In this document: positions 36,001 to 61,652 of the stretch, in pieces
How the letters are laid out: the number at the start of each line of letters is the position of its first letter
How positions within the stretch are numbered: position 1 is the stretch's first letter
Source: Candidatus Omnitrophota bacterium
GTDB lineage: Bacteria; Omnitrophota; Gorgyraeia; Zapsychrales; Zapsychraceae
NCBI GenBank assembly: GCA_029261055.1
Contig: JAJDCA010000075.1
Coordinates: 77,573-141,572 of the forward strand
Length of the DNA stretch: 64,000 nucleotides
Direction of reading: 5' to 3'
Notes under the pieces: generated by a model
Told to the model about the DNA's origin: nothing
Seen by the model: the letters and a program-made list of their open reading frames with translations, nothing else
Database searches by the model: none
Translations under genes and position numbers: made by a program

Positions 36001-39000
36001 AATGGATTCTGACACGGTTATCAACTATGGATGATTCTGATGAGGGTGACATGGCTGCACGTATCGCACGCAATGGAGGTATCAACGGATTAAGAAGCAA
36101 CCTTTTGAGGCAATTAGGAATCCGATATTCTGTTTTAAGAAAAGAAAGCAGCAAAGACCGTCAGGAACTCGAAGCATTCTTTTGGTCGTTAGAGTATCGG
36201 ATTTGGGAAAGGAAAAAAACTTTTTTTGAAGGAAAGAATTCGGGGATGTTATCGAATGAAGTCTTTAAGGCGATCAAAAGAGGCGGAATTGAAGTTGATA
36301 AGAGGTTCGAAGATGACGAGTCGAATTTTCAGGATGCTCCAAAGCCAACTTCTATCCATTTAGGCTCGACCCGGCGTGACGGAAAAACAGATCCGGCAAA
36401 GATTAAAGCGGATGTGGCCGAAGATTCCAGAGAGATACAATTAGAAAAATATAATATTACATTCAAGGTTGATCAGCGGTTAATTAATGAATTGAAAAAG
36501 AAAATGAAGAATGTCAATGAGGATGAAGAAGTTGTTAAAAGGTTACAAGATTGGTTTTCCGAAGGCTTGGATGAGTTGGGGGCACTTAAGGATAACGATA
36601 GAGATGAATTAATAAAGGCTTTGGAGAATAAAGATGTTTTTATTGCACTTTTGGATGCCTCTGTAGCGACATTGGTAAGCATTTCTAATTTGATCGGTAT
36701 TAATTTTGATGTTCTTCAGCTACAAGAGGAGTTTTTAAAGACAAAGCTACAGGTGGGGGTAGTTCATGAGCTTCGACATGTGGCTGGGTTTAAGATGAGG
36801 GAAATAAATCTTGTCACGTGGGATGTTAATTTAACCATGGCATTACGGAAGAATGATGTATCGTCCCTTGTTGCTTTTGCTAAAAATTTACAGCAAATTG
36901 TTTATGCGCGTCAAATAGGATATTTGCATACATTAGCTGTTAAGGTCGATAAATTATATTTTGATTTGGAAATGACGGGCATATTTGAGGATTTTCCGGG
37001 AATATCTAAAACAGAAAAGAATCAAATAAGGTTTGCGTATTATGTTCTTTATGGTTCGAGTAGTCCTCTTTTAGCATTTATCCGTATGCCACACATGGTG
37101 AAGAGGCAGCCGCTAAATGTCATTTTCAAGGTAAAAGAAATTGGGCACATACAGGTGATACCAGGAAAAAATCCAGCATTTCAGGACGTTGAATGGATGG
37201 AACTCCTGGATAATTTAAGTATTGTTTTACGCAATCCATTAAATGGAGAAGAGCTTGTTGTAAAAATACAAGACCAGGTTGAAGATAATGTTTTAGTAGT
37301 CGTCAGAGAACCTCAAGGGCAACTTGATAAAGGACGGGTTTATCGTTTAGAAAAAGTTGGACAAAGTTTTATGTTGTTTGATGATTCAGATAAGAAAGGG
37401 GCTAAAAGTAGGATAAAGTTGCTTTTTGATACAAATAAAATACGTGTTTTAAATTTATCAGAGTTTGCCGAAAAGTTTGCGCAAGAAAATCCTGACATGG
37501 ATCATTTTATTCGTAAATTTAAATCCGTGATGATTATTTTAGGTATTTTAATCAGCCTGGTTGCTCTTTTTGCTGTGGTGGATCCAAGTGCAGGTTGGGC
37601 TTTGGGGGTTGGTGAGGTTGAGGGGGGTAAAGAGTTTGATGTGTTTACTAAAAGGATTCAGGCGTTCAGCCTATGGAGCTGGAGCCCATCGCTTTGGATG
37701 CTGATAAGCGTCGTGGGGCTGGGCAGTATTTGGAATAATTTTAACATTCAAGATCAACAGAATCAAAAGGATAAAACATCAGGGAATCTTCCAGAGGATA
37801 CCCTGCAGGGCATAGAATCTACCGCCGCGGCGATTACTTACACCCAGGATAAGACCAAGGTTTCTAGGGATGTGGATGATTATATGCAAGAGGAAAATAT
37901 AAAAGAGGAAGAGGTTAAAGTTTTTCTAGGTGAAACTTCAGATACAGACGTGACTCAATATAGGAATGCAGGCCAGATGCGCGGGGCCATAACCCAGAGC
38001 AAGGGTATTCAATTTATGGTAATGAATGATATTCCAAAAGACCAGAATATTCCGGAGATTAACGTGTCTCTGCCAATGCAGGAAAGAGTTCATCACAATG
38101 ATAAACCATCCGCGGGGATCTTGGGGGAGAGCCTTAAAAATGTTCTTGCCGTTGAGGCGTTCAAGGGATTGTCTAATGATGACCCCTACTTTATTATGCC
38201 TGCCGCGCATATTGTTTCTAAAGATGTGCAGGGACAAATACAAACGTACCTCTTGGCGGTGTTTCCGCATATGCGCGTCATCTTTCTGCAAAAAGATCTT
38301 TTGGAAGCCGTTAAAAAACTGAATGATAATCCTGAATTCAAGGAGGTTAATTTAGGCAGTGCTTTCCTCGAGATTCTATTAAGGCATGGGTTCCGCCGTA
38401 TCCTGCACCATAACCAAAATAAAGAAGTGAATGAAAAAGAATTTATAGCCTTGGATATGTATCATTTCATTAGCTTTGTTCAGATGCAGGTAAGGCAAGT
38501 TATATCTCAGAACTCCGTTGATGCCCTTCAAATTGTTGCTAAAGCCCTTTTTGATGAGGGAGTTATCAGGGAGGAATTTTATGATCAATTAACCCAAGTT
38601 CAGACATTTATTCTTCAAGATCAAGACGGCCAGTTCAAGGAAGATCATTTGGATGGGCTACCGGATGGCTTTCTTAAATTTAAAGGAGGCACTTTTCATG
38701 GACACTTGCTTGGTGCAGGTCATTTCACCGTTGTCGAAGGATACGAACATCGTTTTAGTAGATATGCTTTTTACCCTTATTCTTTTGATGTAGGCGAGGA
38801 AGAAATAACAGAGGTGCGCATTTATAATGCCTTGGGAAAGGAAGTGCAGAAAATTTCAGAATTCTCTAAGAAAAAATATGAGGCAAATCCTTTAGTTAAA
38901 ATAAATGGAGCTATTTCTAAAAAGAAACTTCTTAAAAAATCTGATTCCGTGATGGTCTTTTTAGATGATGCAGGGGAGAACCCCTTGGATGAGGCAGCAA

Positions 39001-42000
39001 GCAATGAAAATATTACGGGTTTAAGCGGCGGGAAGATAGTGTTTGAGAAAATTTCTATTAAAGAAAAAAGAGGCAATCTCATAGATGTCTTTATTCCTGT
39101 TCAGGTAAGTAATCAGCAGGAAAAGTTGAAAGCGATTGTTCGATTAGCCGTCGCACAGGAATTAGATAATACGGCTCCCTACTATATTGTTCCGGCCACG
39201 CATATTTTTTCTCGAGACTCCAATGGTAGAATTCATAACCATCCTTATGTCGTGCATTCTAAGGGAAAACGTATCTTAATTCACAAAGGATTTTTTGATG
39301 ATAAGGGGCAAAGTATGGCGGCTGAACTTAATCAAATTTTTCGTATTCCCATGGATAAGAATAAAAATAGAGTGGGAGATAATAGATTTAAAGGGCCGAT
39401 TAAGGGATTGGGGGATGCCCTTCTTTATATCACCTTACGCCAAGGATTTAAAGAGGTTCAGCATTTTCCAATTTCGAAAGAACAACGTGAGGCCGAGGTT
39501 GTTTACCAGCTCATAAGTCTTGTAGGGATTTTTCATGATGACACTATTGTCGCAAAGGTGGGCCAGCACCTTCAGGAAAAGAAAATTATTGCGGATAGGT
39601 TTTACAAAAGGCTTCAGACGGTAAAAAAGATCATTCTTTATTTTCTAGAGAGAAAATTTGTACGTCATTACCAAAAAGGAATTTTCAAAGAAATTTTTCA
39701 GAAGTTTGACAAGGCTACCTTCGCGACTCATTTAGCCAAGAATGGGAGCTTTGATGTGGGAGGAGAACATTGGTTGCGAAGAACACAATACGCTTTGTAT
39801 CCCATTGAATTTGACGTAGAAAACGGCAATGTTACCCGGGTACGGATCCTTGATGAACTCGGAGGCGTTATTGAAGAAATTGTATTTTATCGCCAAGAAG
39901 ATGAGCAAGGGACATTGTTAAATACCTATAGTTATGGGAGCCTTGATGAAAATAAAATAAACACCTTTGATAAGGTGTGGATAAAGCATGAGGACTTGAG
40001 ATTGGAAGAAGACAGTGTTTTTAGATTTATCTCTGTAGACCCTTTAGGAAAATTTAAATATTTTGAGCCGGGAAGCCGGGTCGAGCCTTATTTTGAAAAG
40101 GGAAGAATTACCAAGATTAAGATATTTAAAACGGGGAAGGTTGAAGAGAACACAGAGGGGACATTATTTGAACTTTATGACATCTATAACAAGGATGCAG
40201 TCTTCATTCGTTCTGTTTTTGTTGATACTTCTTCTGACCTCCCTCTGCAGGAATTAGCCGGTGAAGATGTGAATGAGGGGAAAGCCATAAGTTATAATTT
40301 TAAACATCAATGGGGTATTGCAAATGATCAACTTCTTACCTTCAGGGGGATAGGAGGCTGTTGTATGACAGATAAACTTCTTTCTCAAGAAGAGATAGCC
40401 CAAAAGAGCGATATGTATGCTCTTCAATCTCCTACGGTGAAAATGAAAGATTTAGAAAGAGATCTTCAGACCAGAAAAACCCTCTTAACCCAACTCAATG
40501 AGGCGTCTGAAAAAATATATTTTTCATTTGAGCAGGTACCTCAAGGCAATACAGGCGTTGTGAAATTAAGATTAAGCACCCTGTTCTCTTTACAAAAGAA
40601 TTTTGATTTTAAACAGATCGGCCAATTTATCTTTATTTTAGATGGTACAAAATATCATTATGAAGTGAGTGATATTTTGGATGAAGCTGAGTGGATAGTG
40701 CAATTGAGAAATCGCAACGGTTCCACGGAAGGCTTGCCTGAACAGGGCGCTTTTACAACAGCAGATATTTCAGGGCATAGGATAAAAGAAGAGTTAGCGC
40801 GCATTGAGCAAATAATAAAAGAGGTAAATATCAAGGAAGGCAGGGATGTAGACGAGGATGCAATACCATCAACACCGTATACGCGTCTTTTAGGATTAAC
40901 CCCGGATACTTCAGCGGAGAATGCCACGGAAATTATTCTTCTGAAGCAGGGGGAGGAACTTCAAAGGAAAATGGTTATAGGGGCTATCATTCAGCAGGCC
41001 GTTGCCGATGAGAAAAATGTTCTTTTGGTATCACGGAAATATCCGGATGTTGATCAGATTCTGGTTGTGATTTTAAATCAAGATCCGCATTTTCCTGTCC
41101 TTCGACTTGGGGCCAAACAATCAGGTTTTGATATGGAATTTCTCAAGAATTATGCTGCTAAGGTCTGGATAGGGGACCATGTGAAGGAAAATCTTGGTGT
41201 AGACGATGTACGCGAGAGTCCTGCGAAGAGTTTATTTCTCAGTAAGATAAAAAAAACCAAAAAAGGTTCTTTAATTGCTGCAAACAATGAGGGGATTGTT
41301 TCGGATACAAAATTCTTGACCCAAGGCACAGGCGAACAGCCCTTTGATATCATTATTATTGATCGGGCAGGCCAGGAGACCGTCACGGAGGCATGGGTGC
41401 CCATACAGTTTTTAAAGAACAACGGCAAAATGATTTTTGTTGATATGCAAAGTGCTTGGGAGCCATTTGGACTGAATAAGGCTCAGAAAAAGTATCTTCT
41501 TTTCCATGGCACGCAACAAAAAGATATCGACATTTTTAATAAAAGTTTTCTTCAGTGGCTGTTGGATTATGGGTATAAGAAACGTGAAAAAAATCTGGCA
41601 GATGATTCCCCTGATGTGTCAAAGGATACCGGTCTTATGCCTGACGGCAGCGGAAAATGGAGTAAAACTCTGCCGAATATATTAGGTATTGTAATCGGGT
41701 TGACCGCATTTTTTTCTGTTATGGATCCAAATGTTGGTTGGACGTTAGGATTGGAGGGCGTTGAGAATCTTAAAGGGTTTGATGTTGTGTCCTGGATTGT
41801 CACTTTGGGTATTGGTCTTGGGGTGTTGGCGGTTGGTATCACGGGCGGCGGGGCATGGTGGAAGAATTTGCCTGCAAGAGTGTTTTTTGTTTTTGCGTTG
41901 CCTCTGAAAGAGATAAGTCGTTTGGTTTTTGCTCTGATTCTGGGAGTTCCTCTGGGTAAGGGGGCGTGGAAACCCTGGCGATTATTGAGCGCGGTTCGGG

Positions 42001-45000
42001 TGGATGACTCCCGTGCCCCACCATGGAAAATTTTTATTATCCGCATTATTGGTCCGGCGGTTAATCTTTTGGTCGGTTTCACCGGATTCTTCCTTTTTGA
42101 CATTCCTTTATTTGACTTTACTTATGTTACATTTATAAGCACAGACACTTTCTGGTGGGTGTTTACTTTAACGAATTTTTTATTGTTTGTTTTTGATATG
42201 ATTTCTTCCAGCATTCTCAAACGCGGGGATGTGCATGAAGCTGTTGAGGGTTTGTCAAAGGGGTGGGATAAGGCCGTTAATAGGGGATTTTATAATATAA
42301 ATGCTAAAAAGTATTCTGTGGATGAAGATCCATTAATGCGCGAGGCAATGGAATCTGTTTTTGGGCAGGCTGTTCCTCAGGAGGTTATAAATCAATATGC
42401 AAATGAATTGCGTGTTCTTGATGTGGGGACGGGCAGGGGCCCTCTTCCTGAATTTGCCGCGACTGCAGGAGCTAAAATTATTGTCGGGATAGATCATTCG
42501 ATTCATATGCTTAAAGAGGCAGAACACAGATTTAATAATATAAAAACTTCAGCCAATATCCGTTTCATCAAAGGGGATGTGGAATATCTTGAGGATAGAT
42601 TAAAGGAATCCAAAATTACAGAACCATTTCATGTAACCACCATGTTTAATGTCCTGCCCGATTTAAAGAGAAAAGAAAATAAGTCTGTATTTGACGAGGT
42701 TTTTAAAGTGATGCTTGATGGAGGTTATTTCATTCTGGGTCAGAATATACAGCTTAATAAATTTGAGGATGAAAATAAGTGGAATATTAAAATTTTGCGA
42801 TGGAATATGAGGGGTTATCAAAAATTATTAGAAGAGACCGGTTTTGTTTTTGATAAAGTTTATGAAATTAAAAAAGTAACTTCAGATTTATTTATTTATG
42901 TTTTATCCGTCAGGAAACAGGATAAAAATTCTTCACAACAGGGATTGGACCCTGCCGGCATTAAGGCACTTGTTCCTCTATTGGTTACAATTGGAATTTT
43001 GATGGTTTTGGGAGGCGTCGTTGAAGCTGGAGAGGTAGAGGGTAATGAATTTTTATTCAATCAGGCAAGCATGGTGTGGACCACCATGAAGACACTTGCG
43101 GTCAGTGTGTGGAGTTTGGTGGGGTCTGTCGTGGGATTTGGGATTTTCTTTGGCATGGCTATTGTTCTAATTTTTTCTAAACAAAACTCTCCCGATAAGA
43201 CGAAGATTTCTAAAAATGAAAGAGAACAAACGACAGGTAATCAAAAAAGCTTGCTTCGTGAGTATTTCAATATTGTTTTAGAACAATTAGGGGAGAAGCT
43301 AGAGAAGATTGTCATTAAACTCGAAGACCGTGCAGGAAAACAGGTAGTAGAGTTTAAAGATGAAACTACGCTGCTCTTTGATAGTGACTTGGCCAGCCGG
43401 GCGCCGCCGTTGGATTCTTCTGATGCCGCATCCTTTCAAACACTTCTACGTGATATCCTTCGTCAAGAATTAGTTAGACATCGTGTGCATGGGGCCAGTG
43501 AATCAATGGCCGTTCGAGTAAGTCTTGATTATTTTAACCAATCAAGAAATAAACAAGAATTAGTTATTCTTCTTTCATCTTTCCAAAAATATTCCATTAA
43601 TGTGGATCAGCAGTATTTTGTTTTATTAAGAAATTTATTACCTCAAGAAATAGAAAAAAAGAAAACTGTTTTAACAGAGAAAGTGATAGCAGAAGCAGAT
43701 TATGCCAGTATTGAAGCCTTGGCAGCCTTAGAGCTTTCCGAAGCTGTTTTAGCAAATCAAGAATCAGATAAACAAGTCCTTGTTGCTGCCAATCTTTCAT
43801 ACGGTGGATTGGTAGTAGATATTATCGGACGTGATTTAGGCAATAATGACATAGATGTCGTTCGGACCAAGGTTGGCTCTTCAGAAAGTGAAAATAATCC
43901 ACATATATTTAAACCGCAGTTATTTGATGTTAAGACTTTGAAAAATTTGGTAACAGAGCAACCACACATAATTGTTTTGGATGGTACGTTTAATCCATTT
44001 GAGATTAGAAAGCAGGGGAGGCGGTCATTCGTAGGAGGCCGTTACTCAGATGCTTACCAGGGGTACAGAAATTTTGTATTGGCATTTAATTTAGCCCTTG
44101 CGAATGTCCAGAAAGAAACAAAAAGAGATGATCTGTTCTACCGTATTGGCAAGTTGAATGGATTTTTGAAGTCATTATATTCAAGTCATTATGGAGAAAA
44201 ATTTCTAGATTTTGTTCAATACCTTGAGTCTATTATGCGGGAAGTTGGTGATCAAGATTTACAATATTATTCTTTTGGATTCTGGAATCCTAACGGGTTA
44301 AATACAGTGTTTCGTGAATATAAGCAGCTGCAATTCAGAGCAAACGTGATATCTCCGGACAGTATCATTAAGCCAACGGTTATTTTTGCTAATGTTACGA
44401 TGCTTGACCAGGTTATTCCTCGCTCCCTTCATGAAGAGCATCATCCGCATAAACATGCGCCGGGATTCTTTGATTTAGTAGATTCGAAAGGTTTTATTAG
44501 AGAATATGATTGGCAGAGGGTTTCTTATCCGTTTTCTAAATTGGTAGGTGTTAGCCCTCAAGAAGATATTGAAAAAAATCAATTACTCATGAATTTAATA
44601 CATTCAAGATATCCTGAATTAAAGCGTAAATATTATCGGCCGGAATTGAAGGATGGTGAAAGTCAAAATCAAAAGCGAGGTACTTCAAACCTTAAGACAA
44701 TTCTTTCGCTATTGTTCACAATTGGAATTTTGATGGTTTTTGGAAGAGTCGTTGAAGCAGGAGAGGTGGAGAGTAATGAATTTTTATTCAATCAGGTAAG
44801 CATGGCGTGGACAACTCTGAAGACGTTTGTGGACATTCCTTTTGAGACAGGGGTGGCATTGATGGGGGCCATAGTTTTTAGGGGGCAACCTAAAGGTCGA
44901 CCAGTGCTCAAAACGCTTGTTCAGAATGGATTTTATTTGAGTGATGCCGAAGTAATCGTCAAAGAGCAGCAACTTTTTGCAAAGCGTGCCAAGATAGGAT

Positions 45001-48000
45001 TATCCGAACAGGATATTAAAAATATACATCGAGAGACTTACTGGAACACGCTTAATAATCATTTGAAATATACTGTGGCAGGAAAACGTGTTTTGAAAGT
45101 AATGATGATCAGCATACTTGTGGTTACAGGTTTATCCGTAGTGTTTCTGAATGGGCCATTAACAGAAATTTTGCAAGCGTTGATATTAGATTTTTTTGGC
45201 AGCGTAATGATTTTTACGGTTTTAGTAATGGGATTATTTTTGATTAAGACAGAAAAAATTTTAAATTTTATGGGTTTGCATCAGCCCTATTACAACAGAA
45301 TATTCCTATTCAATCAAAAGGAGATTAGTGAAAAATTTAGAAATATTCCTGATTTAAGCAAAAAAGCATGGCTTAAGTTAGTAGGCGCAAAAATATATTT
45401 TCAGGGTCTTATTGTCCATGAGACGGGACATCTGTTTTTTCCGCAAGCTTCTGAAGAAGTTCTTATTTCAATGAAGATCCTTCGTATTATGGAATTAGAT
45501 CAAAGTAAAATGACTCAATATGCATTTTTCTTATCCGCGGTTGATGGGGGCTCAATTGAAAGTTTTAAATTAGCACAACATGCTTGGCGCATAGGCGAAC
45601 GTACCGGTGATCATGAAAATGCCTGGGACTATTTAGTGCTGCTTGCTGAAGGAAAGACAAAAGAGGCTGAAGCAATGGCAAGAGGTAATGAGAATAGGGG
45701 CAATGATGATTCTATTCAGGTTAAGGTTTTTATTCCTTTGCCTTTGAGGCGTTATGTTGATGGTCAGAGTGTGGTTGAAGTAGAAGGGAGAGGGGCGAGA
45801 GAGGTGACGCTTAAGCAGGTCATGGAACGATTGTTTCGGGAGTACCCTGCATTAAAATTATATTTTGAAAGAAATATAGACGCAAGCATGACGAAGAAGG
45901 TAACAGAAAAAGCACAACAGATATTTTTCTTTGTCGATGGGAAAGACACTCCGGTGATTTTCAATCAGGAAGCATGGTCAAAGATTTTGGTTGAAAAAGA
46001 AATTCGCCTTGTGCCACACATGCATGGAGGGGTACTGAATAAAGAAGAGCGTATATTGCAAATTAAGGAGCTATTTGAGAAACGTGGGTACACGGCCAAA
46101 GAAGCGCAGCTCATTATTGACGTGCAGCAATTTTTGATCCCACATATCCGATCTTTTATTCCGAAGGATCTAGGAAAAAATGTTGGTATTATATGGATGA
46201 TTTATCCGCATACAGAAAGAAATCTTTTGCTGCATTCTTTGTATTTTGGATATGTGTTGATGGGGTGGATAACCCTATTTTTAGTGTTTTTGGGATTTGG
46301 ATTTATAAATCCAGAGGTTCTTTTATGGAAGGTCGCAGCTGGTCTGACATTGATACCTTTGGGCAGTTGGTACGATTCTTTGAAATACAATTTAAGAAAA
46401 CCTGGACATATTGGTTTCTTCAAAAAGGTTATTTTTCTCCCTCCAACAGGTTCCATCGATGCTCCGAATATTGTCCGTACGATGGTTCAGTCTCTTGTAC
46501 GTTATCAAGTAAGGGGCTTTTACCGTTATGGAGAAAATCTCGAATATGTCTTTGAGGCTATGGGCGCTTTACATTACATGGAATTGCACGGTTCTTTCAA
46601 GGGATCGTCTTTTAGCTCAAAGGCGAATGCTTTAGCCAGAGAGGCTCTAGAGGTCGGTAAAGAAGCTGGAGAAACCAAGAAGGCATGGACTTTTCTTGGC
46701 ATGATGGGTAATGGATCTAGAGAAGAAGTTGCTAGAGGGAAGGTTTTGGGGTTAAGTGAAGAGGAAATAAAAAAGACAAGCGCTTTTCGAAAGTTTTTCA
46801 GTTTCCGCGGCGCCTTGATGGCGGGATTGGGGTGGCTGGGTTTTGTTGTTTTATTTGGCAATGAGATTATGGAAAAAGGATTTATATTTGGAGGTTGGAG
46901 TGCGATACCAGCCAGTCTACTTCTTATGACGGGAGTCATCGGTTTTGTGACTCAATTCTCTTTAGCCTGGCGTATTCAGCGGGGTGTGAGGAGGCTTAAG
47001 GCATTGTTTAAGAGCGGCGAGATGGACTTGCCACCGCCGAGTACTGAAGATATTAAGTCTTTGGCTTTATCCATTATCGATCGAGCCAGGAAGACATCAA
47101 GAGGAGCATCTGTTGATATTAGATTTTATGAAACGTTAAGATCGTCTTTTAACGACATTCCTGAGGAACACTTAAATAAACCTGCCTGGATGGAAACGCA
47201 TTATGTTGACTCCCGGGACGATCGTGATAATGATCAACATTCCATTCGTATTCTTCATGTCAATATTCCATTACTAGATGCCATGAGTTCAGACCCGGAC
47301 GTCTTGCGGCGTATTCTTAAATCCATTTATAGTCACGAATTTTCCCATCTACGCGGCAAGGGAGAAGTTTATGCCTTCATAATTCAGAGCTTGAAGGCCT
47401 GGAGGATCTTTATTGGAGCTTTACCTAAAGCGATACTTCGGTTGTTACGCAGGATGGGCTTGGCAAGCCATTTAAGAAAGGTGACCCGACGCCTGATGTT
47501 TGTTTTACGTGCGCGCGCTGGGATATTTAAGACGATACTTTTATTTACCCTGGCGGCAAATTTTGTTTTGATGCGCTGGGCAAATGCTTTTAGTGACCAA
47601 GATGTTGCAGCCATAGGTTCAAATATTTTTAGTAGCGAGAATAGTGTAGGGATTTTAGGATTTTTGAGTGTGTGGTATCTGTGGAACACTGTTTCAAAAA
47701 GACGTTCTAAAAATAAAAGCCGACCTTTTGTTTTGAGAAATAAGATTTTATTCTTTCTTTATCGACGATTTAGAGTGATGTCAGCCAAGAGAGAATTTAA
47801 GAAAACGGTGCAAAAACTTAGAAGTAATTTAAAAAAAGGTATCCAAATTGATGTCATGGAAGGAACACAGGAATATAGTCAGGGATTGGTACAAGCTATT
47901 ATGACTTTTCTTAAGAGAAGAGGCGTTAGACAAGATGTGTCGGTTGTTTTATTAGGTTCTCTTGCAAGGGATATGACGCATGAGAGTAGCGATGCGGATA

Positions 48001-51000
48001 TAGTTCTTATTACAGATTCTTCATCTGCAGCTTGGGTTGAAAAAAGACTTTCTGGGTATTTTGGCTTGCGGGCGGCGTTAAGGAGCGTTTCTCATGAATT
48101 TGATACAATCATCGCAGGGAAGTTGATTTTTACGACGGAAGAATTTAAGGATCATATTGAAAATTTATCACAAAATATAATCCATTTTAGTGACAAAGAC
48201 AATTTTAAAGTTATAGTTAGTTCTCTACTATCTGCCCAACCTCATTTTTTCGCAAAAAAATCCCACAAAGATGCGATAGAAAATAGTTTGAAGAAATTAG
48301 CCGGAAATTTAGGGTTAATGTCGGCAATGAATATCTATGTACAAGAAGAATTAATAGAAAGTCGGAAAGTTTTTGATCAGAGCAACGCGTTGGATACTGA
48401 ATTAATTTTTTCTAATTTAAAACAGGCCCGTTTAGGTCAAAAAATTATTCATTCTCTAATTGCCTTGCTTCAATTTAGTGTGTTTCAGGAAACACGAGGA
48501 GCAGGTTGGCCTATATTTATGGCCGAGCAAGAAAATACAAAAGAAGCATGGCGGGCGTATCTTAATGCATTGGTAAGCAGACAAAATGTGTTTAAGAAGG
48601 AGGATGTTAATAAAATATTTGAGGGGTACGAAGCGTTTTTAAGTGCTTATAGGCCTCAAGGTATTAATAAAGATACGCTCATTAAGATTATGGAGGATTT
48701 ACGTCTTTTAGCTTTACAGAAAATGGAGGCTATTGAAAGTATGGCCGTTTTTGTTTATTTGCAGGGTCCTATTAAAAAGCATTTCAGGTCTAGTTTAGGG
48801 CTCGAGATAGGGCCAGTCACTATCAAACTCAAAGTTTTTGGATTTACCTTGGAGGAAGTTCTACATACATTAGAAATAAAGAATTATTTTGCAACTATTA
48901 AAAATGGGCAAATAGATGAAAATTTAACAATTTACATAAACAATGAAGAAGTGTCATTTCAGAATTGGAAGCACCAAAAAGTGCCATCCGGTGCGCAGAT
49001 AAAGATTGTTTCACATGCGCAAAATTATCATGAGGAAAGGAAGAAATCACAGAAATCTTTTAAGATTCTTGGGTTGATTTTGATGGCGGCTGCAGGGGTA
49101 ACAGCATTGTTTGCCGTATTCCCTCTGACGGGATGGACGAGCAGTATTCTTCCCGGGCTTGTGCAGGGTGCCGAAGGTAACATGGTTTGGTTCGGATTTG
49201 ACAAGGGTTTAGCGGGGATCGTTTTTGGGGCGGGATTGTTTGCGATAATGGGTTTCACTAGTGGCGCGTGGAATTTGCGTTCAAGTCAGGTGAACCCGGG
49301 TAAAAATAAGTTATTAGGTCCCGAGGCTTTTGGTCCCATTCAGCGGACGCGGTTGAGTTCTAAAAACGGAGAGCATTTTAGGAATGTTGTCGGCCGTGCG
49401 GTTATGGATAGTTCCGGTGCACTGCGTCCTGTGAAGGAAACTAAGGATGATTATCAGATAGCCTCGCGGCTTTCGGCAGTGACGGGAAGATTAGCTTTGG
49501 AAGTCTGTCAAGAGTGTGACTGGAGCGGGGTTATTGTTCAAGTTGTTCGCGATAGTGACCGGCTGGCGCGTTTTACGGAGAATAATGTAGGGGTAATGAC
49601 CATAGATGAGGATATCCTTACGATGATAGAAAAGGGACGCCCGGGGGCGTTAGAAACATTTGAACTCGGATACAAACACGAGCTTTATCACACGCATGTT
49701 TACAAAAATCGATTGGAGTTTAATCGTGTTTCGTGGATAGGTCAAGAAGAGCGTCTTGTGGAAGAGCTTTTTGTGACCGTGTTATACCTCAAAGATTTTC
49801 TTGCCTACAGCTCTGATACAAGAGAAGGCATTCTTAATCTTTTATCCGCGACAGATAATCCTTACGATCCTTTTCAATTCGGTAGGAATATCCTTCAGCC
49901 GATGCATGAAGGCGTCATTGAAAAGGGTCATTTACATAATGGTCAAGCTTTTCAGGAGACTTTAGTCGAGGTTTTACCGAAAGTTATCGCCTATATTACG
50001 GATACCGATTTTTATAATTATCCGGGTATTGATAGTGCTCGAAAAATTTTACGGGAAATACATCCTGATAATTTTAGAAAATATATACATGGATTAGATT
50101 TAAATTTACCTCCGGGCTTCATCGGGCGTTTTATTTATGCCGTAAAACGTATTCACGGGGTAGGCCGGTTTATTTTGGAAGACGGGGAAATGTATGAAGT
50201 TATGGTGGCGCCCTATTCTATAAATTATTCGAGAAATAGAGAAAATGAAAAGCGTAAAGAAAACGGCATGGTTAGTGTTTTTGTAGAGAATATAAGCGTT
50301 GGGCGTTCAAGTCCGAATGGTTTTAATGCGGATGATGGTACAGGTGTGGATCCTGTATTTGCTGGAAGTATGGATATGGCGACTATTGGACTTAATCTAT
50401 GGTTGGCACGTTTATTATTAGTTAAGGATTATATAAAATTGACTGCAAGTTCGGTAGAAATTATTACCCATCTTAGGGCGCCTAAATTGGACAGGCATGC
50501 TTTTTATTTGGTTGAGGATGGTTATCATGGGCATACATCAAACGCAAAATTAGATTTTGAGGCAAGGGCCAAAAACTTTAGGAAGCTTGGCTTAGCGCAA
50601 GTTATTCTTGAGGTGCTTTTGTCATATATCGCTCCAGGGGGTACAGTCACGCTGAGCATTATACATCCTGTTATTTTACGACAAATAAAAGAAGAAGATA
50701 TTCCTTGGGAAGACACAAAATTTGGAAAATTGTTTGCCAGCGTTGGTCTACTTAGAAGCGAAACGGGCGCATATATTGATCTAAATAAATTAGAACTTAT
50801 CAAACATACTAAAATCAGCACCCCACCGCGTGTCAATATCCAGTGGATTAATAAGGGCAATGTTTTTGGTTCGTATGCACCTACATTTAAACCACCCATT
50901 TTTTCATCCTTTCGTATCCACCTTACGCAGACCTGGAAATGGCTGAAGAATCGCCATCTCCCACCAGCCAATTTATTTTATTATTTAAGTCTGGTAATCT

Positions 51001-54000
51001 TAGCCCCGTGGGCCGCACGGTTAGGAAAGAAGACGTATGCCACAATTACAGCGTGGATTGGTTTGGGTGGGCTTACTATCGAAATTCCAGCATTGGTTTA
51101 CGCGGCATTGTTTTTCGGGCCGCTGGGAATGTTGGCTGTCATCGCAGCTCTGGCTGTGGGCGAAATCCTTTTAGAGCTTCTTGCGCTATGGCTGCTACCC
51201 GCGCGGGCACGAGGGGATATTGCCCGGCATACTTTCAAATCTATTGTACGTACCTTCAGCCGGAAGATGCGTGTCCTCTTGCCCTACGTAGGTCTGGCTA
51301 TCCTGTGGTTTGTCATTCCCTCAATCAGTTTTACCTTAGCCATTTTTATTCCCAGCTTTCTTATTCCCATTCTTTTTACCGTCTTCTTTCATGGCATTTA
51401 TGATATGAATTATTTCCAAAAGGTCTTGGAGATAGGAATTGATTGGGATAGAAAAAAGTATTCTTCTGTCGGCGGCGGGCGAAGGTTTGATGATGTCGAG
51501 AAACTTTTTAGTAGGGCTACGCAGCATGACCCCGACGCCCTGGGCCAGTTGGTTGCGTATCAGAAGAATTTTCCTGAGTTATTCTGGAGGCAGGTTGATT
51601 ATTTTTGGTATGACCGGAGCAACATCAATCATCTTCTTAAATTAGGTCAGGCCTCTGTTGATAGTTCTTTGAAGTCTAGAGAAATTCCTATTCCTAAGGT
51701 GATCAAGGATATTCCTCATTTAGATTTTTCCAGGGCAACCCCAGAGGATTTATTAAATCAAAAAGAGTATGAAGAGGTAAGAGAATTAAATTCAAGTCCA
51801 CAGGCAATAGTCTCAGCGATAAGGAATGTTTACAGACCACAGGATATAAACTTTAGTCTTTCTGAAACATTAGTACGCCGAGTTGATATCCATCAAGATG
51901 ATTTGATTCAAAAGGATTTTGAAGCAACCATTAAGAAGAAGCTCGGTAAAGATCAGGAAATTAATATTTATCAAATCGGTCTTGGAACCGAATATTTTGA
52001 AACTTCAAGTATTTTCACCGTATTAGAAAACGCATTTGACGCAAACAAGGTGTCTCCCAAAGATCAAAAAAAATGGACCATTAATTTTATTGGGATTGAT
52101 TTTGATTCAGAAGTTATTGAGAATTTTTGGCCAAGAGTTGTCGTGGAAAGCCCCTTTAACACCAATCTTAAGATTGGTCAGGGGGATACCCTTTATGAAG
52201 AGGCCATGCAAGAATTAAGCAAGTGGTATAAAGCTGATTATATTTTTCACCGGCATGTTTCTTATGCGAATCATTTGATCAGCCAGGGTAGTCTTTATTA
52301 TCCGGAAAATTATGAAGAAGTAGTAGATGAAAATGAGTTAAGCGCAATGATTAATGTTTATGCATCGACACGAAATATATTAAAACATTTAGCTAAGCCA
52401 GGGACACATTATATTATTGAACCCGCTCAAAACGGACCATTCCCTTTTGTGTTTTATATCCCGGGAACCGAAATTATTACAGTGAATAAACTCGAAGGAA
52501 ACAGAAAATATGATGATGAGCATGATATTAACAATATTGGGACAGGCATTCATGAGGTACTTGATCCTGAGAAGGTGGCCGAGGAGGGTATTAAATATTT
52601 ACTACAGTACAATGCGCATAAGAATAATTTTCAGGGCAACTTAGCGTACGTGTTGGGAAAAGAAGGTCTGGACCCATCTTCGTGGTTTTATTATTTCACC
52701 CGGTTTATTTTGGCAGTATTGATAAAGTTTAATGTGATGAAATCTGCCAAAGTAAAGTTGGGTAAAAAAATCAGCACGTGGGTCGGCCTCGGCGGGCTTG
52801 TGGTCGAGATTCCGGCGCTTATTTACGCGGCGCTAACCTTTGGCCCTCTGGGAATGCTGGCAGTCATCGCTACCCTGTCTGCAGGCGAAATATTCCTGGA
52901 ACTTCTCACCCTTTGGCTGTTACCCTCCCGGGCACGAGGAGATGTTGCGCGTTATGATGGATATTTCATTCTGCAGCTGTTTGGCAGAAAGATGATGGTT
53001 CTTTCACCTTACGTATTCCTCTCTTTATTGTGGATTCTTGCAACGCCCACCGGAGTTACGCTCTTCTTGCCCGTCCCCATCTTTATTCATGCAACATATG
53101 ATTATTATCAATTGCGAGATAGTTCCTCCGTAGGGACAGGTCGTAGCCTATCTTTACATCTGAAAAATATTCTCAAGATAGCAGGAGAGTATGTGACGAG
53201 GATTGTATCAAAAGTCCGAGCGCTCGGACTTTTGGTCAATGAAACTTTGGCCAAAGGGGCAGTCCTATCAGCCGGTTTGTGGTTAGTAGCCCCAGGGACT
53301 GTGCTGGCAGGCGGCATTACCGGTGGGGGGCTTGGAATTATTGAGCTGATTTCAGGGCAACTTCTGGAGATTTTAGTGAGTATAGTAGGGACGTTTACAA
53401 TAATATTTATTGTAAATACACTTTATAAAAAACGTGTTCGTGCAATCAGTAAAGATATGAAGGCGGAGATTTACGCGTCTTATAGTGTAAAGGCTGATGG
53501 GGATGAAGGGGCATCCGGAAATAATAATTACGATGAAAATCCAGGGTTTCAAAAAGCGGTTAAATCTATTTTTGGCCGCGCTGTTTCTACCAATTTTCTA
53601 AAAAAATACGAACATAAACTAAATGTTCTTGATTTATTAACAGGCCGAGGAGTTGTCCCATTTTTTGCTGTCAAGGCAGGAGCTAAGTCTATTGTAGGTG
53701 TAGATCATTCAAACCAGAATCTTGAATTGGCAAAGGCATATTTGGTAAAGGTTACTCACTTGGCAAAGGTACGTCTTATTGAAGATGACGTGAAGCATTT
53801 TTTGAGTGAATTTGAAAAGGATAGGCCCAGCATGGGGGCATTTCATATTGTCACCATGGTCAATGCTGTACATAGATTTGATGCAGAGTCTTTAAAATTT
53901 ATTTTTTCACAATCATTAAAAGTGCTGGAAGCGGGAGGACGATTGGTTTTATTGACACACGTTAAGCATTTAAGCCTCGATAGGGCAGGTTCATGGAAAT

Positions 54001-57000
54001 CATCGGATATCAAAGCCTATCAGAAGTTTTTAAAGAAAAGTGGTTTTATTCACGTTAACGCTTATCCAGCTGGGGAAATAAAGGGTAAAGTAAGAGTTTT
54101 TAATAAAAGTCATGAAGAAGAATTAAGAGATGCGCGTTGGACTATTGTTGTTATTGCAGCCGAAAAACCTGAGAATGATGCCTCCAAATCTTCGCGAGGC
54201 GCCCCCAGGAAGCTTCCCCAGATTTTCTACAAATTTTTCTTAAAACATTTTGTGAATGTAATAGTTCCTTTCCTCCTTTTTGTTCTCATCTATATGATCA
54301 GCGGGATAGAGTCTGTTTGGGCGGAAGGGGTGGTTGATAACATGGGCCTTATGCATTTAGGGCAAGCCGAAGTTAGCTCGCTGGGCTTTTTAAATCCGTT
54401 GGGAGATTTAGTATGGTTAGTGCCCATGGTGTTTATGGGAGGGATTAATGTTCAAAATAATCCGGAGGAGAATTCAACGAATGTGCGTAACGTCGTCCTT
54501 GATGAAGAGTTTATACAGGAAGCGGAACATGTGAAAAATCATTTATTAAAAGTTATAGGGGATGCCTTTAATATTGAAGATAACAAGGATTCCCCTCAAG
54601 CCCTTGCGCAAATTGCTGAAGCCTTTGCGCAGGCAGGTTTTATGACCCAAGCTTTCGACTTGGCCATGGAGGTTATCAAAGAAACAGAAACTATTATTCC
54701 ATCTCCGAAACAATTTAACGCCCGTGTTAAAGCCGCCGCTGTCCTTTGGAATATTGGTTATCATAATGAAGCTAAACAAGCCCTTAAAATTATAAATAGC
54801 GAAAACGGATCACATATAGGCAAAATTAATAATCTTTCAATATCATTGGCTCCTGAATTTATTCTACAGCAGCGGGGGCTGGTTGCACATGAGGAGAGTC
54901 AAAAAATTCGTAAGAATATTAAAGAAAATGTTTTTTATGGGTATAAGGAAAATCCTGACAGGAAAATTTCTGATCTTACGGTGTTAGCCTCTGCATTAAT
55001 TTCGGGAGAGTATCCTGAGGAAGGAAATTCGGTCCTTGATGATGCGAAAATAATCGTACAGGAAGGGATTAAAAAAAGTGCGGTTTGGGAATGGATTGAG
55101 GCCATCTCTGATTTGGCTGTTGTGTTTGCGCGTGCCGGTCGCGTACCTGAGGCCTATGAGATCATCGTAGGGGCACAGGGTACACCACTGCGTCAAGACA
55201 CAAGCGACACGCATAGGCATTCTGAGGCCCTAATTTCACTTGCCTGGGCTTTAATTCAGACTGGGCATAGAGAAGAGGGGCATACATTGATGGATAAGAT
55301 ACGTGTGAATATTGACACCGATAATTCTAAACTTAATATGCGGATTTTGGCGCGTATCGAATTGGCCATAGTGTTTGCCTTGGAGGGTAAAATTTTAGAG
55401 GCGAATGAGTTATTAGATCAGGTACGGCATGAAACCAGGACAATTTTAGATGAGAAGGATGCATTACGATCCTTGATTGTTAGTAAAACGATGTCAGCGC
55501 AGTCCGTGATTTTTCATGAGGCGTTGATGGCAGTAGCACCTTCTGTACGTACGCAAGTGATGAGTGTTTGGCCTTCTATCCAGGGCAAAGTTTCAATTAC
55601 GTTAGCGATAATTGGTGTAAAAGGACTTCTGAGTGAGGCTCCGGTGATGGAAGAGGTGAGTCCTGACGTATGGAAAAGGGTATGGAATAATTTGGAATAT
55701 ATTGACGTTTATCCATCACAAGGGGTACTGCCCACAGAGACAAACAGGATTTTGTTTTATATTATAAAATTGCTTAAGCGACCCGTTAGAGAAAAAGGCG
55801 ATTGGGCATTCTTAGAGACTCCGCCGTTATGGTTTAACACTATGCTTAAAACCCAATCTTCTCAAGGTCTGCCGTCATGGTTGACAAAGATTTGGCCGCG
55901 TTTTTCTTTCAAAGACAGACTTAGTTTTGGTTTGCTTATCATCACAGCAAAGATTCAGCATCTTCCTATAGAATGGCTGCGAGAGATGCCGCGGGATCAG
56001 CGTAAATACGTCTATTTTCAAGGAATGTTGAGCTTTTGGTGGGGCCAGGAATTCGGCCCATATCAAAAGGTGATGAAATCTCTTTTGAATCAGATTCCTC
56101 CTTCATCAAACTATGAAGAGCGTGTTCAATTTATTCATGCTTCCGTCATGTTGATGCGTTTGCTGGTGAGGGTCATGCCGACATTTAGGAGGCTGAGACG
56201 AACTGATTTTCTCGATGATTTGGTTAGCTCTTTATCCAAACCATCTGCAGTCCCTCTACTGGAGAGGATTCGACAAGTAGAGCAGGACATTAATAAATAT
56301 CTATTTAATAAAGTAGAAGATCTTTTGCATATTACTCTGGATAAAAATTATCCTTTGGATATTCTTCCCGACATCGATCTTTGGAGGGCTGTTTTTAATT
56401 ATGATTTGCAAAATGAGCCCCGTTTGCGTGATTTGTTCGGGCAATACGTATTGACATGGCAGCGCACCAGTGATTCAAAGCAGGCGAGCGTGGCGGCCTG
56501 GGAGTGGTTACAGTCTTCGTTAGAAAAGGAGACTGGAGAAAAAGTGAGTTTTGCTCATGATAGCGCGCCTGCACCTATGTCTTTTATGGGTAGTCCTAAA
56601 GTAAACCGAGCGCAAGCAGCTCAGGATGCTGTCGCCCAGCAGTATAAGGAGGCGCATTCTTTAGTGCAGCAATTGATTCAGAAATTACCGGGAGCAACCG
56701 TTACAGACGCTTTGAGTCAATTGTTAACACAATGGGGTGAACCCGGTACCCCATCTGAGGAAATAGTGAATCAACTAAGAAATTTATTAGGTCAGATTAA
56801 GATAACAAAAGATTTAGAAGTATACATAAAAACAATACGTAAGCATCTTCAGAAAGTCAAATCAATTGCCGGTGAAATTAATTATTTTGATGGGTCTCAG
56901 AATGTTCTCATTGGGGTTAGCATGGATCCGGTAGAGCGTTTGCATCTCGGATATCCTTCCCTTGGAGGCTCATGCCTGGATTGTATGACAGGAGGCGCAA

Positions 57001-60000
57001 AGCATTTTGCAGCAGGTTATGTGCTTCATCCCAAGATAGCAGTTCTCTATGCCTGGCGTGAACAGCCCGATGGGTCAAAAGGTGAACGGTTGGCCCGTGT
57101 GGTTGTCATGCAGACACCCCAAGGATTGATTCTTTTAAGTAATCTCAAGACGAGCACGGATTTGGAGTTGGGCAAGGCCTTCTCTGAATTCCTCTGGCGG
57201 TGGTCGCGGAAGGCAAATATTCCTTTGATGAGATTGGAAGGTGAATCTTTTCCATGGTTGACACTCCCGGCGGATACAGCTTCAGAAAAGATGGTCGTAG
57301 AGTTTCCTGCGGGAGGCCTTAGAGGAGAGTTTTATTCCGATGTCCTATTATGGGTAACCACATTTCCAATGGAAAGGATCTTAAACGTTCAACGTTATGT
57401 TCCTGAAACAATCGAGACGCATATGTTTTGGGCGGGGCATATTCAACCGGCCAATGGAAGTGAAGTGATCGTCACAGATGATAAGTCCATAGCTCTCACG
57501 TTTGCTTTGGCGCTGGACAAAAAAGAATTAGATGAATCCAAGTTGATTGATCAAATAGGGCTTAAAGGATTTGTGCATTTTAGGTATTCCGCAATTGTTG
57601 ACGGACATCCGCATGAGTATGACTGGTCAACGCCGGAACAGGATCTACCTTTGAATTGGGCGTCATTAAAAGTCATTGGACGTGATAAAGATAATAATTA
57701 TCTGATATCGGCAAAGTTTCATCCACCGAAGGAAATGATTTCTATCCGGTTCATCATCAGACTGCATACGAGGACGGGGCAAGAAATTTGGTTGAGCAAT
57801 TATACCGAAGACAACAATTGGGTGTGGACGGTAAATCGGGGAACGGTGATGAATGTAATAGTTCCTTTCCTTCTTTTTGCGTTCATCTATATGATCACCG
57901 GGGTAGCGTCTGTTTGGGCGGAAGGGGTGGTTGATAGGATGGAGCTTGGGATAAATGATGGAAAATGGGAATGGTTGGTGCGTATGGTTGCCGGCGTAGG
58001 AATTGTGGGAGGGCTAATAAGTCCGTTAGCTAAGAGAGATGCTGGGGTAAATCCATTTAAGAAAAGGCATGAAGAAATAAAACGAGAAAGAAAAGAGAAA
58101 GAAGCTATTCAAAATAAGGACACTCGTCCTGTTGACCAAGTAAAGGTTGTTGTGCCGCTCGTCGAACAGAATAATAATTTTATAAAAATTAAATCGGAAA
58201 AAAGTGCGCAGGCAGCTAAGTTAACATGGAATGGCCTCGAGAAAATTAGTGCCTTTTTTCAGATTATATTGCAACTAAAAAGGTTAATAATTAATTTTAC
58301 TTCTTTTGACATCAACAAGATACGCGAAATGGTATTTGGACCTTTTATTCTCATTGTTTTTATCATTGGTTTGATAGACCTGTTTACGCATGTTGAAACT
58401 GGCGTGGTGAATCATTGGCCAGTGGATTTGATGATTCCCTTGATGATGTTTAATAAAGTTCGTTTAGGGGATTTGGATAGGTTATTAAAGCGATTTAAAT
58501 GGAATGGTGTTTTCATAAAGGATCTTCCAATACACACAATTAGTCCAAGTTTTTATGAACATCAAATCGATAAGGACACTAAGATTACTTTGATAGAATT
58601 TATTCTGGAGGAAGGTAAGCAGAATAGAAAAAAATGGTATGTAAATAATCATCTGATTGGAGCCGCAAAGCTGACTGAAATAGAATTGAAAAAATATCTT
58701 CTGGATGACATATTCGATGTGTATTCGATTTTACTGCAAAAGAATGAGATTATTTCGAGCAAACAAATTTTAAAATTGTTAAGAAATAAATTAAAAGTGA
58801 TTAGTACTATTCGACAACTTGAACGATCGCTCCAGTGGCTAGAATTAAAATGGTTTCCGGTTCGACGCATGCCGATAAGGAAAAGGTATGAGGTAGGGCG
58901 TATTATTGATTTGGGCTGGGAGGTAAGCGGGGTTGTGAGTACAATGCCTAATATCATCAGTTCACATAATTGGGGTAAAAAATTACATAAACAATGGAAT
59001 GTCGATGGGAAAATTAACGGGATATTAATTTCTAAGCGAATTAATGTAATTAAAGAAATATATAAATTACAAAAAACTAGGGATATCATTGACGGAAATA
59101 AACGTAAAACAGTTGATGCCTTAAATAAAATTTTAAATAATTGGGAAAAATTAGATGAAGGGTCTCCACGCATTTCAAGATTAGATCTATTTGGGTATGA
59201 ACCAATATTACTCTATTTGGGTAAGAGTCGTACTGAATCTGAATTGAGGGTTTTTCCTGATTTAATGCAATTGCAACCAAAAGAACGTGAAAAGAAATTG
59301 CAGTTTGTATCAGGAGTAACAGATGATGAAATTGAAAGGTTGATTGGAGGTAAGAAAAAAAGAATTCTGTTTGCTCAAACAAGGAATAATAATTTTCAGA
59401 AGTTATCTCCAGAATATTGGATAAGATTAGCCTATAGTTTAGGATTTCGGGATTCTTTTATCCTTCTTGCAGGAGATGAACAAGATAATATTTTGCCTAT
59501 TATTGATATTCCTTACCGCATTAGGTTGTTACGATTATCGAAGGGGTTGAAGCGGGAGGATCTTGCAAAGAAATTAGGTGTGTCGAGAGAAATGATATCT
59601 AAATGGGAAAATGTAAATAAACCTTTGAAAATTTTACAAAAGTATCGTGCAGATCTTGCTGCTATTTTGGGAGTTAAGGAAGAAGATTTATTTGCTCAAA
59701 AGAAAAAGTCAGAAATGGAAGTTCATGGGGAAAGGGGGCCTGTTTGGTTTACAAAGAAAATCCCTGTAGCTCTCCAAGGAGCGCTGGCTGAATATGTTAA
59801 AGATATCCCTATCGGAGAGGCTCATGAGGTGAAGGTTAATACTGTGGGAAGCACCTTGGGGGACGTGATCCATAATTTACGTGAAGCATATCCAAAACTG
59901 GGGCGGAATCTTTTAAGCGAAAGGGGACAGTTGGATGTGCGGATCCATATCGAGGTTGATGGAAAAAGAGTGGACGGTCATTCTGACTGGGCGGCCATCC

Positions 60001-61652: not shown

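Follow-up and report, generated by a model that had tools for sequence, protein, structure and literature searches.

Ubiquitin-like domains of the MoaD/SAMP type embedded in an Omnitrophota giant protein, two of them with a retained Gly-Gly

Three embedded ubiquitin-like domains

The window, that is, the whole 64,000-nucleotide stretch analysed here (Candidatus Omnitrophota bacterium, GenBank assembly GCA_029261055.1, contig JAJDCA010000075.1, positions 77,573 to 141,572 of the forward strand), is filled almost entirely by one giant open reading frame (ORF) located at 3..61652 on the + strand, as are all features described below except mutL. This ORF has at least 20,549 codons, ends at a stop codon at 61650-61652, and encodes a multi-enzyme, membrane-threaded protein of the Omnitrophota type. 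Its left edge is open: it is listed as 150..61652, i.e. 20,500 residues from a TTG start at nt 150 (from which residue numbers are counted throughout), and no in-frame stop is found from there up to the first base of the window, so that the gene must start outside the window. Embedded in the protein are three segments, named here seg1, seg2 and seg3 in their order along the gene, which a sequence-only reading had described as MoaD/ThiS-like, ubiquitin-like (Ubl) beta-grasp segments with a terminal Gly-Gly (GG). Their coordinates and frame were right, all three lying in the single giant ORF, and the MoaD/ThiS-like identity is borne out for each of them, on different grounds.

The clearest case is seg3 (59739..60050, aa 19864-19967), which ends in ...ITIFAGIAGG and can, on sequence evidence, be firmly assigned to the ThiS/MoaD family. 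With 26.0 bits (E 1.4e-5) it exceeds the gathering score of 22.5 for Pfam ThiS (PF02597), and it matches the NCBIfam SAMP1 profile NF041918 with an E-value of 1.1e-8, under the equivalog cut-off of 60, in an alignment that reaches the last profile position; moaD_arch of NCBIfam is matched as well. In the PDB, phmmer retrieves 1v8c (a MoaD-related protein of T. thermophilus), 2m19 (HVO_2177) and 3dwg (CysO), the terminal GG of each falling on the IAGG of seg3, and hhalign against 11 Thermus-type MoaD/SAMP proteins gives 92.7%. Finally, a hidden Markov model (HMM) built solely from family sequences outside the window was run over the whole giant ORF, cut into 408 overlapping fragments, and its only significant matches are seg3 (independent E-value, iE, 1.9e-6) and seg1 (iE 0.004).

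The assignment of seg1 (45705..46031, aa 15186-15294, ending in ...LVPHMHGG) to the MoaD/ThiS/SAMP-type beta-grasp domains is good, even if no Pfam family matches it and an insertion of about 15 aa sets it apart from the family. In addition to the HMM result, hhalign against the MoaD/SAMP family alignment gives 86% (E 4.9e-6), GG being placed on GG, and an AlphaFold2 (AF2) model of the segment (pLDDT 76.8, pTM 0.71) has as its top Foldseek matches in the PDB CysO (3dwg_C, E 4e-6), SAMP1, MoaD and Urm1, with TMt values of 0.62-0.82. The degenerate seg2 (48744..49025, aa 16199-16292, ending in ...KIVSHAQN) is a probable member of the same type: its match to Pfam ThiS stays under the gathering score (19.9 bits, E 1.1e-3) and its hhalign match to the family is weak, while within a larger AF2 model that runs on through the following membrane segment and an HExxH motif at aa 16510 (local pLDDT 52-88), Foldseek again finds CysO, Urm1 and SAMP1 (prob 1.0, TMt 0.55-0.73). 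The Foldseek comparison that the sequence-only reading had proposed thus came out in favour of a beta-grasp fold for seg1 and seg2, which are the two segments covered by models. For want of homologues of the region itself, the alignments used for both AF2 runs included MoaD homologues, and the fold result is for that reason supportive, and not fully independent of the sequence result.

Could the resemblance be due to chance, the segments not being beta-grasp at all, or the ORF be an artefact of assembly or frame? The missing Pfam match of seg1, the sub-threshold score of seg2 and the bias that MoaD homologues may introduce into the models would fit such an explanation, which is nevertheless essentially excluded: seg3 exceeds the curated Pfam threshold, seg3 and seg1 stand out in the scan with the HMM built from outside sequences, and all three segments align end-to-end with the family (MAFFT). 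As for the ORF, its frame runs for 61.5 kb without a stop, against 1,384 and 1,983 stops in the two remaining frames; more than 15 Pfam families are found in it, all in this one frame; and a Logan assembly of run SRR15505515, made independently, has the final 12,173 nt of the window without any difference. Taken together, the three segments are genuine ubiquitin-like beta-grasp domains of the MoaD/SAMP/CysO family, seg2 probably so. No further Ubl copy was found in the giant ORF with HMMs of the three segments or with the outside-family HMM. The three segments are best filed as embedded Ubl domains of the ThiS/MoaD/SAMP superfamily and not as functional sulfur carriers, since the gene provides no free C-terminus and neither an E1 nor an acceptor was detected next to them.

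Gly-Gly tails and membrane context

The GG of seg1 (codons at 46026-46031, aa 15293-15294, followed by 5,206 residues) and that of seg3 (60045-60050, aa 19966-19967, followed by 533 residues) align exactly with the C-terminal GG of the free homologues. In seg2 the family sequence PPVAGG is replaced by ...KIVSHAQNYH, so that the description of three segments with a terminal Gly-Gly stands for seg1 and seg3 and fails for seg2. Both GG-bearing segments have diverged to about 25-33% identity. Of the 35 columns that are invariant in the family they keep 34-37%, but neither segment has lost either glycine, and these stand at the exact terminus of the family (joint chance about 0.02); seg2 keeps 17% of these columns and neither glycine. 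The residue following the GG (P1') is Val in seg1 and His in seg3, that is, not proline, and further polypeptide follows, as in cleavable Ubl-fusion precursors of the MoaX or ubiquitin-fusion type. The nearest family members found include proteins extended by 1-18 residues past the GG, which suggests that trimming after the GG occurs within the family. A relic stop or start signal at the GG codons was also considered and rejected, as none is present in the DNA and the GGAGGG of seg1 merely represents two Gly codons.

The domains have the same beta-grasp fold and, all along from first strand to tail, the same sequence pattern as SAMP1, MoaD, CysO and Urm1 (PF02597; NF041918, TIGR01687). In contrast to these free proteins of about 65-100 aa, in which the GG is (nearly) the C-terminus, the embedded Ubls lie thousands of residues from either end of the protein, the 533 residues after seg3 excepted, and whereas the free proteins have an E1-like enzyme as their partner, neither an E1 nor an acceptor was detected in the giant ORF, and one of the embedded copies has no GG.

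After each of the three Ubls a transmembrane (TM) segment comes next, with no other recognisable element between the two. According to Kyte-Doolittle hydropathy, the TM segment(s) after seg1 (46251..46379, aa ~15368-15410) begin 74 aa past its GG, the hairpin after seg2 (49065..49271, aa 16306-16374) 14 aa past the domain, and the hairpin(s) after seg3 (60186..60350, aa 20013-20067) 46 aa past its GG; in our reading, all of them are hairpins. For seg2, the AF2 model shows a long helix running on from the last strand. A TM start is found at most 75 aa away from 14.6% of the positions in the protein, and the chance that this applies to all three Ubls is about 0.003.

The cassettes closed by the Ubls have different contents, namely an HExxH module (seg1), a nucleotidyltransferase (seg2) and an XRE-type helix-turn-helix (HTH) domain (seg3). 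The Pol-beta-type nucleotidyltransferase, which had been noticed beside one Ubl from its motif, is a real NTP_transf_2 domain (47904..48131, aa 15919-15994; Pfam E 7.8e-5, 23.4 bits for a cut-off of 21), with the G-S-x9-D-x-D motif at aa 15936-15950, some 750 nt ahead of seg2, and with weak MntA-like and Sden_1164 matches. The HTH domain (HTH_3, 59520..59612, aa 19791-19821; Pfam E 4e-8) lies about 40 aa upstream of seg3 and gave generic HTH matches in PADLOC (HTH_VI, RmrA, capH). Since the nucleotidyltransferase and the HTH need NTPs and DNA, their cassettes probably face the cytoplasm.

These observations can be brought together in a model in which small SAMP/MoaD-type genes, or Ubl domains at protein C-termini, would have been joined in frame to a membrane-anchored unit downstream and so have given rise to the Ubls; with such an origin, the ends of the Ubls would mark old protein boundaries. 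The cassettes would face the cytoplasm, as the need for NTP, S-adenosylmethionine (SAM) or DNA suggests, and the junctions of seg1 and seg3 would be cut after the Gly-Gly, between HMHGG and VLNK (nt 46031/46032) and between IAGG and HSGA (nt 60050/60051). Through such cuts, the last quarter of the giant protein would fall into separate membrane-anchored pieces with Ubl-GG as new C-termini, while seg2, having lost its GG and running straight into a TM helix, would stay in the chain for good as an uncleaved Ubl domain.

That the GG of seg1 and seg3 are still used in this way, as maturation sites cleaved after HMHGG and IAGG, is tentatively favoured here, at somewhat less than an even chance. It is favoured because both glycines are kept in both segments, because of the family extensions past the GG, and because the GG-bearing copies have spacers of 46-74 aa before the membrane whereas seg2 runs into its TM helix. 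Moreover, uncleaved integral Ubl domains are usually without GG, and GG-bearing fusions are usually precursors. The short distance from the Ubl ends to TM starts, the P1' residues other than proline and the abundance of HExxH modules, described below, also count in its favour. Two described systems provide precedents. In the MoaX protein of M. tuberculosis, cleavage between Gly82 and Ser83 is essential and both glycines are required (PMC4326299), and the MoaD-MoaE fusion of D. radiodurans is cut by the JAMM protease DRJAMM (PMC8832034). In both, as in seg1 and seg3, a MoaD-type Ubl carries an internal Gly-Gly and the chain continues beyond it; both are, however, two-domain proteins in which MoaE directly follows the GG, whereas in the giant protein the GG is followed by a spacer and TM segments and cleavage is hypothesised. 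In eukaryotic ubiquitin-fusion and polyubiquitin precursors, and in archaeal ubiquitin precursors cut by Rpn11/JAMM (PMC6043591), cleavage between Ubl-GG and the next residue likewise separates fused products, but these belong to another Ubl subfamily and their dedicated deubiquitinases are known.

Nearly as likely as cleavage is that the Ubls are uncleaved relics of fusions, inert spacers, or docking or structural caps at the membrane, comparable to the UBL domains found in multidomain proteins of eukaryotes, two GG pairs having simply not yet decayed. The position of each Ubl at the C-terminal end of a cassette, right before a TM segment, speaks for relics of fusion, seg2 shows decay of the tail within the same protein, no partner for activation, conjugation or deconjugation is present in the ORF, and GG retention exceeds expectation only at about p = 0.02. 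Giant proteins of this kind moreover gather hundreds of different Pfam domains (10.64898/2026.06.07.730766), and embedded ThiS/MoaD-like and other Ubls are common in prokaryotic multidomain proteins, with examples such as ThiS-ThiG, MoaD-MoaE, Ubl-Mut7-C, polyUbl, phage TAPI, and YukD/EccD, in which a Ubl is joined to a 12-TM domain (Iyer, Burroughs & Aravind 2006, PMC1779556). In these proteins the beta-grasp is used as a module, as in the giant protein, the YukD/EccD Ubl lies directly N-terminal to membrane helices, and 1v8c of T. thermophilus is a two-domain protein with an internal MoaD-GG, like seg1 and seg3; none of them, in contrast, is part of a giant, membrane-threaded multi-enzyme protein, and none is tied to HExxH modules. 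It is more difficult to reconcile mere persistence with a diglycine kept at the exact family terminus despite such divergence, with the rarity of GG in integral, uncleaved Ubls, or with spacers of 74 and 46 aa in the GG copies as opposed to 14 aa in seg2, which fit two functional classes. Both possibilities raised by the sequence-only reading, processing sites and relics of fused genes, are compatible with the findings.

HExxH modules and partner enzymes

If the junctions of seg1 and seg3 are cut, which protease would do so? The conventional candidate would be a JAMM-type enzyme encoded elsewhere in the genome. More speculatively, the protease could be an HExxH module of the giant protein itself, put on the same face of the membrane by the hairpin, 190-435 aa downstream of the GG. 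HExxH motifs are strongly over-represented in the ORF, with 10 occurrences for 0.66 expected from composition (15-fold; at most 4 in 2000 shuffles), while related control patterns occur 0-2 times. They start at aa 3266, 7141, 7882, 9240, 12206, 14761, 15090, 15729, 16510 and 20157 (nt 9945, 21570, 23793, 27867, 36765, 44430, 45417, 47334, 49677 and 60618), most of them after a hydrophobic stretch and several alike in register. Four are close to the Ubls. The module at 45417..45458 (aa 15090-15103), with the extended motif HETGHLFFPQASEE, precedes seg1 by about 100 aa and shares its small cassette, and HEFSH (47334..47348, aa 15729) follows the seg1 GG at 435 aa, past the TM segment(s); HELYH (49677..49691, aa 16510), 55 aa upstream of which a CxxC pair is found, follows seg2 at 218 aa, past the TM hairpin, and HELVH (60618..60632, aa 20157) follows the seg3 GG at 190 aa, likewise past the TM hairpin.

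The modules at aa 3266 and 9240 resemble each other (E 7e-9) and adjoin TM helices, one of them with a faint Peptidase_M50 match, and the others have a common strand-helix-HExxH syntax. The extended motif HExxHxx[FY]PxxSEE occurs twice in the giant ORF, where none is expected (as a DNA pattern, 2 in the window and 0 in shuffles), and HExxHxx[FY]Pxx[ST]EE is also present in the giant ORF that lies beside mutL in another Omnitrophota metagenome-assembled genome (MAG), L002 (19296-19337). A DNA variant of it, with one base fixed (GAAGAR) and with Thr, Cys, Trp and Arg also admitted at the Ser position, was found in at least 120 metagenome contigs, in short open frames of at most 407 aa, mostly of about 90-170 aa, and among the matches listed it is never in a giant gene. 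Some of these small proteins weakly match SprT-like (E 1.6e-4, under the gathering score), YgjP-like and WLM zincins. The modules of the giant protein share with these minimal zincins (SprT, YgjP of DUF45, WLM) the strand-helix lead into hhhHExxH, and with the small, weakly matching proteins the extended motif; they differ in that they themselves fit no Pfam or PDB profile, and they are at most putative members of these families.

A self-processing polyprotein can be imagined on this basis, in which membrane-proximal SprT-like zincins, positioned by hairpins beside the Ubl tail of the cassette before them, would cut after Ubl-GG. The released fragments, several thousand residues long, would end in an activatable SAMP-like Ubl-GG that could be conjugated to other proteins or fragments, so that the giant scaffold would contain its own ubiquitin-like tagging chemistry, and embedded Ubl-GG would be general cleavage markers in Omnitrophota giant proteins. 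This elaborate version is considered unlikely. The link between cleavage and the protein's own HExxH modules is attractive but unsupported, being only inferred, and the autoproteolytic sites proposed from the sequence alone have found no direct support, beta-grasp domains not being proteases.

In the seg3 region, the order XRE-type HTH, Ubl, TM hairpin and HExxH module is found at 59520-60632 (aa 19791-20161). Repressor/metalloprotease pairs are known in ImmR/ImmA, DdrO/IrrE and CapH/CapP, and it is these pairs that the order recalls, the PADLOC matches of the HTH being generic. This stretch could be a membrane-tethered regulator cassette. The G+C content falls from 0.44 (56-58 kb) to 0.36 (58-60 kb), with local values of 0.30 to 0.52 over the HTH, seg3 and TM region, and these swings at 56001-60000 may reflect a mosaic origin of the cassettes.

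Partner enzymes are missing from the giant ORF, as the sequence-only reading had stated for E1 and JAMM: a search with Pfam (E<=0.1) and for motifs confirmed that neither is present within the ORF, with no JAMM motif, no Pfam JAB/MPN match, and no E1 Rossmann motif, rhodanese or E2. This bears on another possibility, namely that the Ubl-GG, once released, is active as a modifier or as a sulfur carrier. It would be adenylated by an E1-like enzyme whose gene lies elsewhere (or, in an unconventional way, by its Pol-beta neighbour) and then thiocarboxylated, or conjugated to lysines as in SAMPylation, cross-linking fragments. The best family match of seg3 is indeed SAMP1, which is both a protein modifier and a sulfur carrier, its tail ...AGG is canonical, and a nucleotidyltransferase is encoded in the same region. 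However, this nucleotidyltransferase belongs to the cassette of seg2, the sole copy without GG, and activation of Ubl C-termini is not a known function of Pol-beta nucleotidyltransferases. Furthermore, the protein is almost devoid of Cys, with none near seg1 or seg3, and the scenario requires a prior cleavage that is itself unproven. We regard it as quite improbable.

Several observations also weigh against the tentatively favoured cleavage after the GG of seg1 and seg3. Only two GG sites are present per more than 20,500 residues, which would allow at most local processing and not a general maturation scheme, and the PHMHGG tail of seg1 deviates from the usual PPV[AST]GG. JAMM, E1, E2, MoaE, ThiG and CysM domains were undetected in the giant ORF by Pfam (E<=0.1), NCBIfam, PADLOC and PDB scans and by regular expressions. 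For the proximity of HExxH motifs to the Ubls, the statistic is post hoc and, at about 0.01, weak. No curated peptidase family is matched by the HExxH modules (Pfam at E<=10; profile search against the PDB), and the AF2 model covering seg2, the TM segment and the HExxH at aa 16510 has a pLDDT <50 outside the Ubl and the first helix, and thus yields no confident HExxH model; no zincin of this kind is known to cut after a Ubl-GG. Finally, no comparative support was obtained: an exhaustive phmmer search with aa 15180-16379 (45687-49286) gave 0 matches at E<=0.001 in 1.84 billion representative proteins, back-translated aa 17651-18250 found no relative in genome, viral and metagenome contig collections, and ThiS is absent from the last 3,000 residues of the mutL-adjacent giant ORFs of MAGs L002 and L006. 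In addition, a word-seeded protein search found no relatives of seg1 or of the HTH, seg3 and TM region. The orphan stretch of 1,200 residues (aa 15180-16379) does include the Pfam-recognisable nucleotidyltransferase, and its orphan status fits the giant-gene literature, in which about 80% of the clusters of such long proteins are singletons (10.64898/2026.06.07.730766).

A giant protein of Omnitrophota

The giant protein as a whole consists of enzyme cassettes set apart by transmembrane segments, many of them arranged as close pairs. A Kyte-Doolittle scan gives about 50 TM-like hydrophobic segments, many closely spaced, and the Pfam content includes a GT4 glycosyltransferase, alpha-amylase, FBPase_glpX, TPR, HD_5+GGDEF, an SF1 helicase, three SAM methyltransferases, NTP_transf_2, HTH_3 and ThiS. 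By self-BLAST, the protein harbors old and large internal duplications with 24-60% identity, some in blocks of more than 1,000 residues (aa 4587-5636 and 5824-6851; 7658-8950 and 12548-13805; 16932-17111 and 17502-17665; 18035-18099 and 19234-19285; 14257-14316 and 14834-14893), and none of these includes a Ubl segment. The 20,500 residues contain 10 Cys (0.049%), every one in an adjacent pair (CxxC three times, CC twice) at aa 64/67, 8201/8202, 13404/13405, 16453/16456 and 18942/18945. For comparison, the Cys share is 0.81% and 1.13% in the two neighbouring genes and 0.38% in a piece of the giant ORF of L002, and such a depletion is mentioned in neither giant-gene preprint (10.1101/2023.11.21.568195, 10.64898/2026.06.07.730766).

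The only neighbours seen are mutL, at 61828-63681 on the - strand, facing the 3' end of the giant gene in convergent orientation, and a gene of 881 aa. MutL shares 50-60% identity with its counterparts in Candidatus Omnitrophota MAGs. In two of these other MAGs (L002 and L006), mutL likewise converges on an ORF that exceeds 3,000 aa and continues past the end of the locus, the last 3,000 residues of the L006 ORF showing no similarity to the C-terminus of the ORF described here, while in a further locus (L004) ordinary genes are found next to mutL instead of a giant ORF.

With its length of more than 10,000 aa, its many TM helices, its many Pfam domains and its Omnitrophota-like MutL neighbour, the protein belongs to the 'multi-enzyme metabolic cluster' class of Omnitrophota giant proteins (10.64898/2026.06.07.730766; 10.1101/2023.11.21.568195). 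It resembles these proteins in length, in its many TM helices, in the uniqueness of its sequence, and in its mosaic of sugar-metabolism, methyltransferase, signalling and helicase domains. The papers on them propose C39 and S8 peptidase domains as candidate processing enzymes and name no cleavage points. Ubiquitin, ThiS/MoaD and HExxH go unmentioned in the main texts of both papers, one supplementary file of the latter (10.64898/2026.06.07.730766) has no entry for PF02597, ThiS/MoaD or ubiquitin, and a literature search combining Omnitrophota and ubiquitin returned no title or abstract on the topic. Embedded prokaryotic Ubls, GG-directed cleavage of MoaD fusions and the giant proteins of Omnitrophota are, each for itself, already known.

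Do the Omnitrophota proteins of 10,000-150,000 residues persist as single chains, or are they cut into pieces? The paper that defined them regards cleavage as likely, but reports that for lack of known cut points the analysis could go no further (10.1101/2023.11.21.568195). It is on this question that the Ubl-GG sites bear, as they pinpoint two candidate positions for cutting, behind aa 15294 (nt 46031) and behind aa 19967 (nt 60050), and the 10 zincin-like HExxH modules provide candidate proteases in cis. The identity of the domains is solid, and the mechanism is unproven, resting on one orphan sequence. If there is no cleavage, the domains would be an ordinary further case of Ubl modules accreted into multidomain proteins. 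If cleavage does take place, Ubl-GG junctions would offer a predictive rule for dissecting giant proteins, and the principle of the ubiquitin-fusion precursor would extend to bacterial polyproteins.

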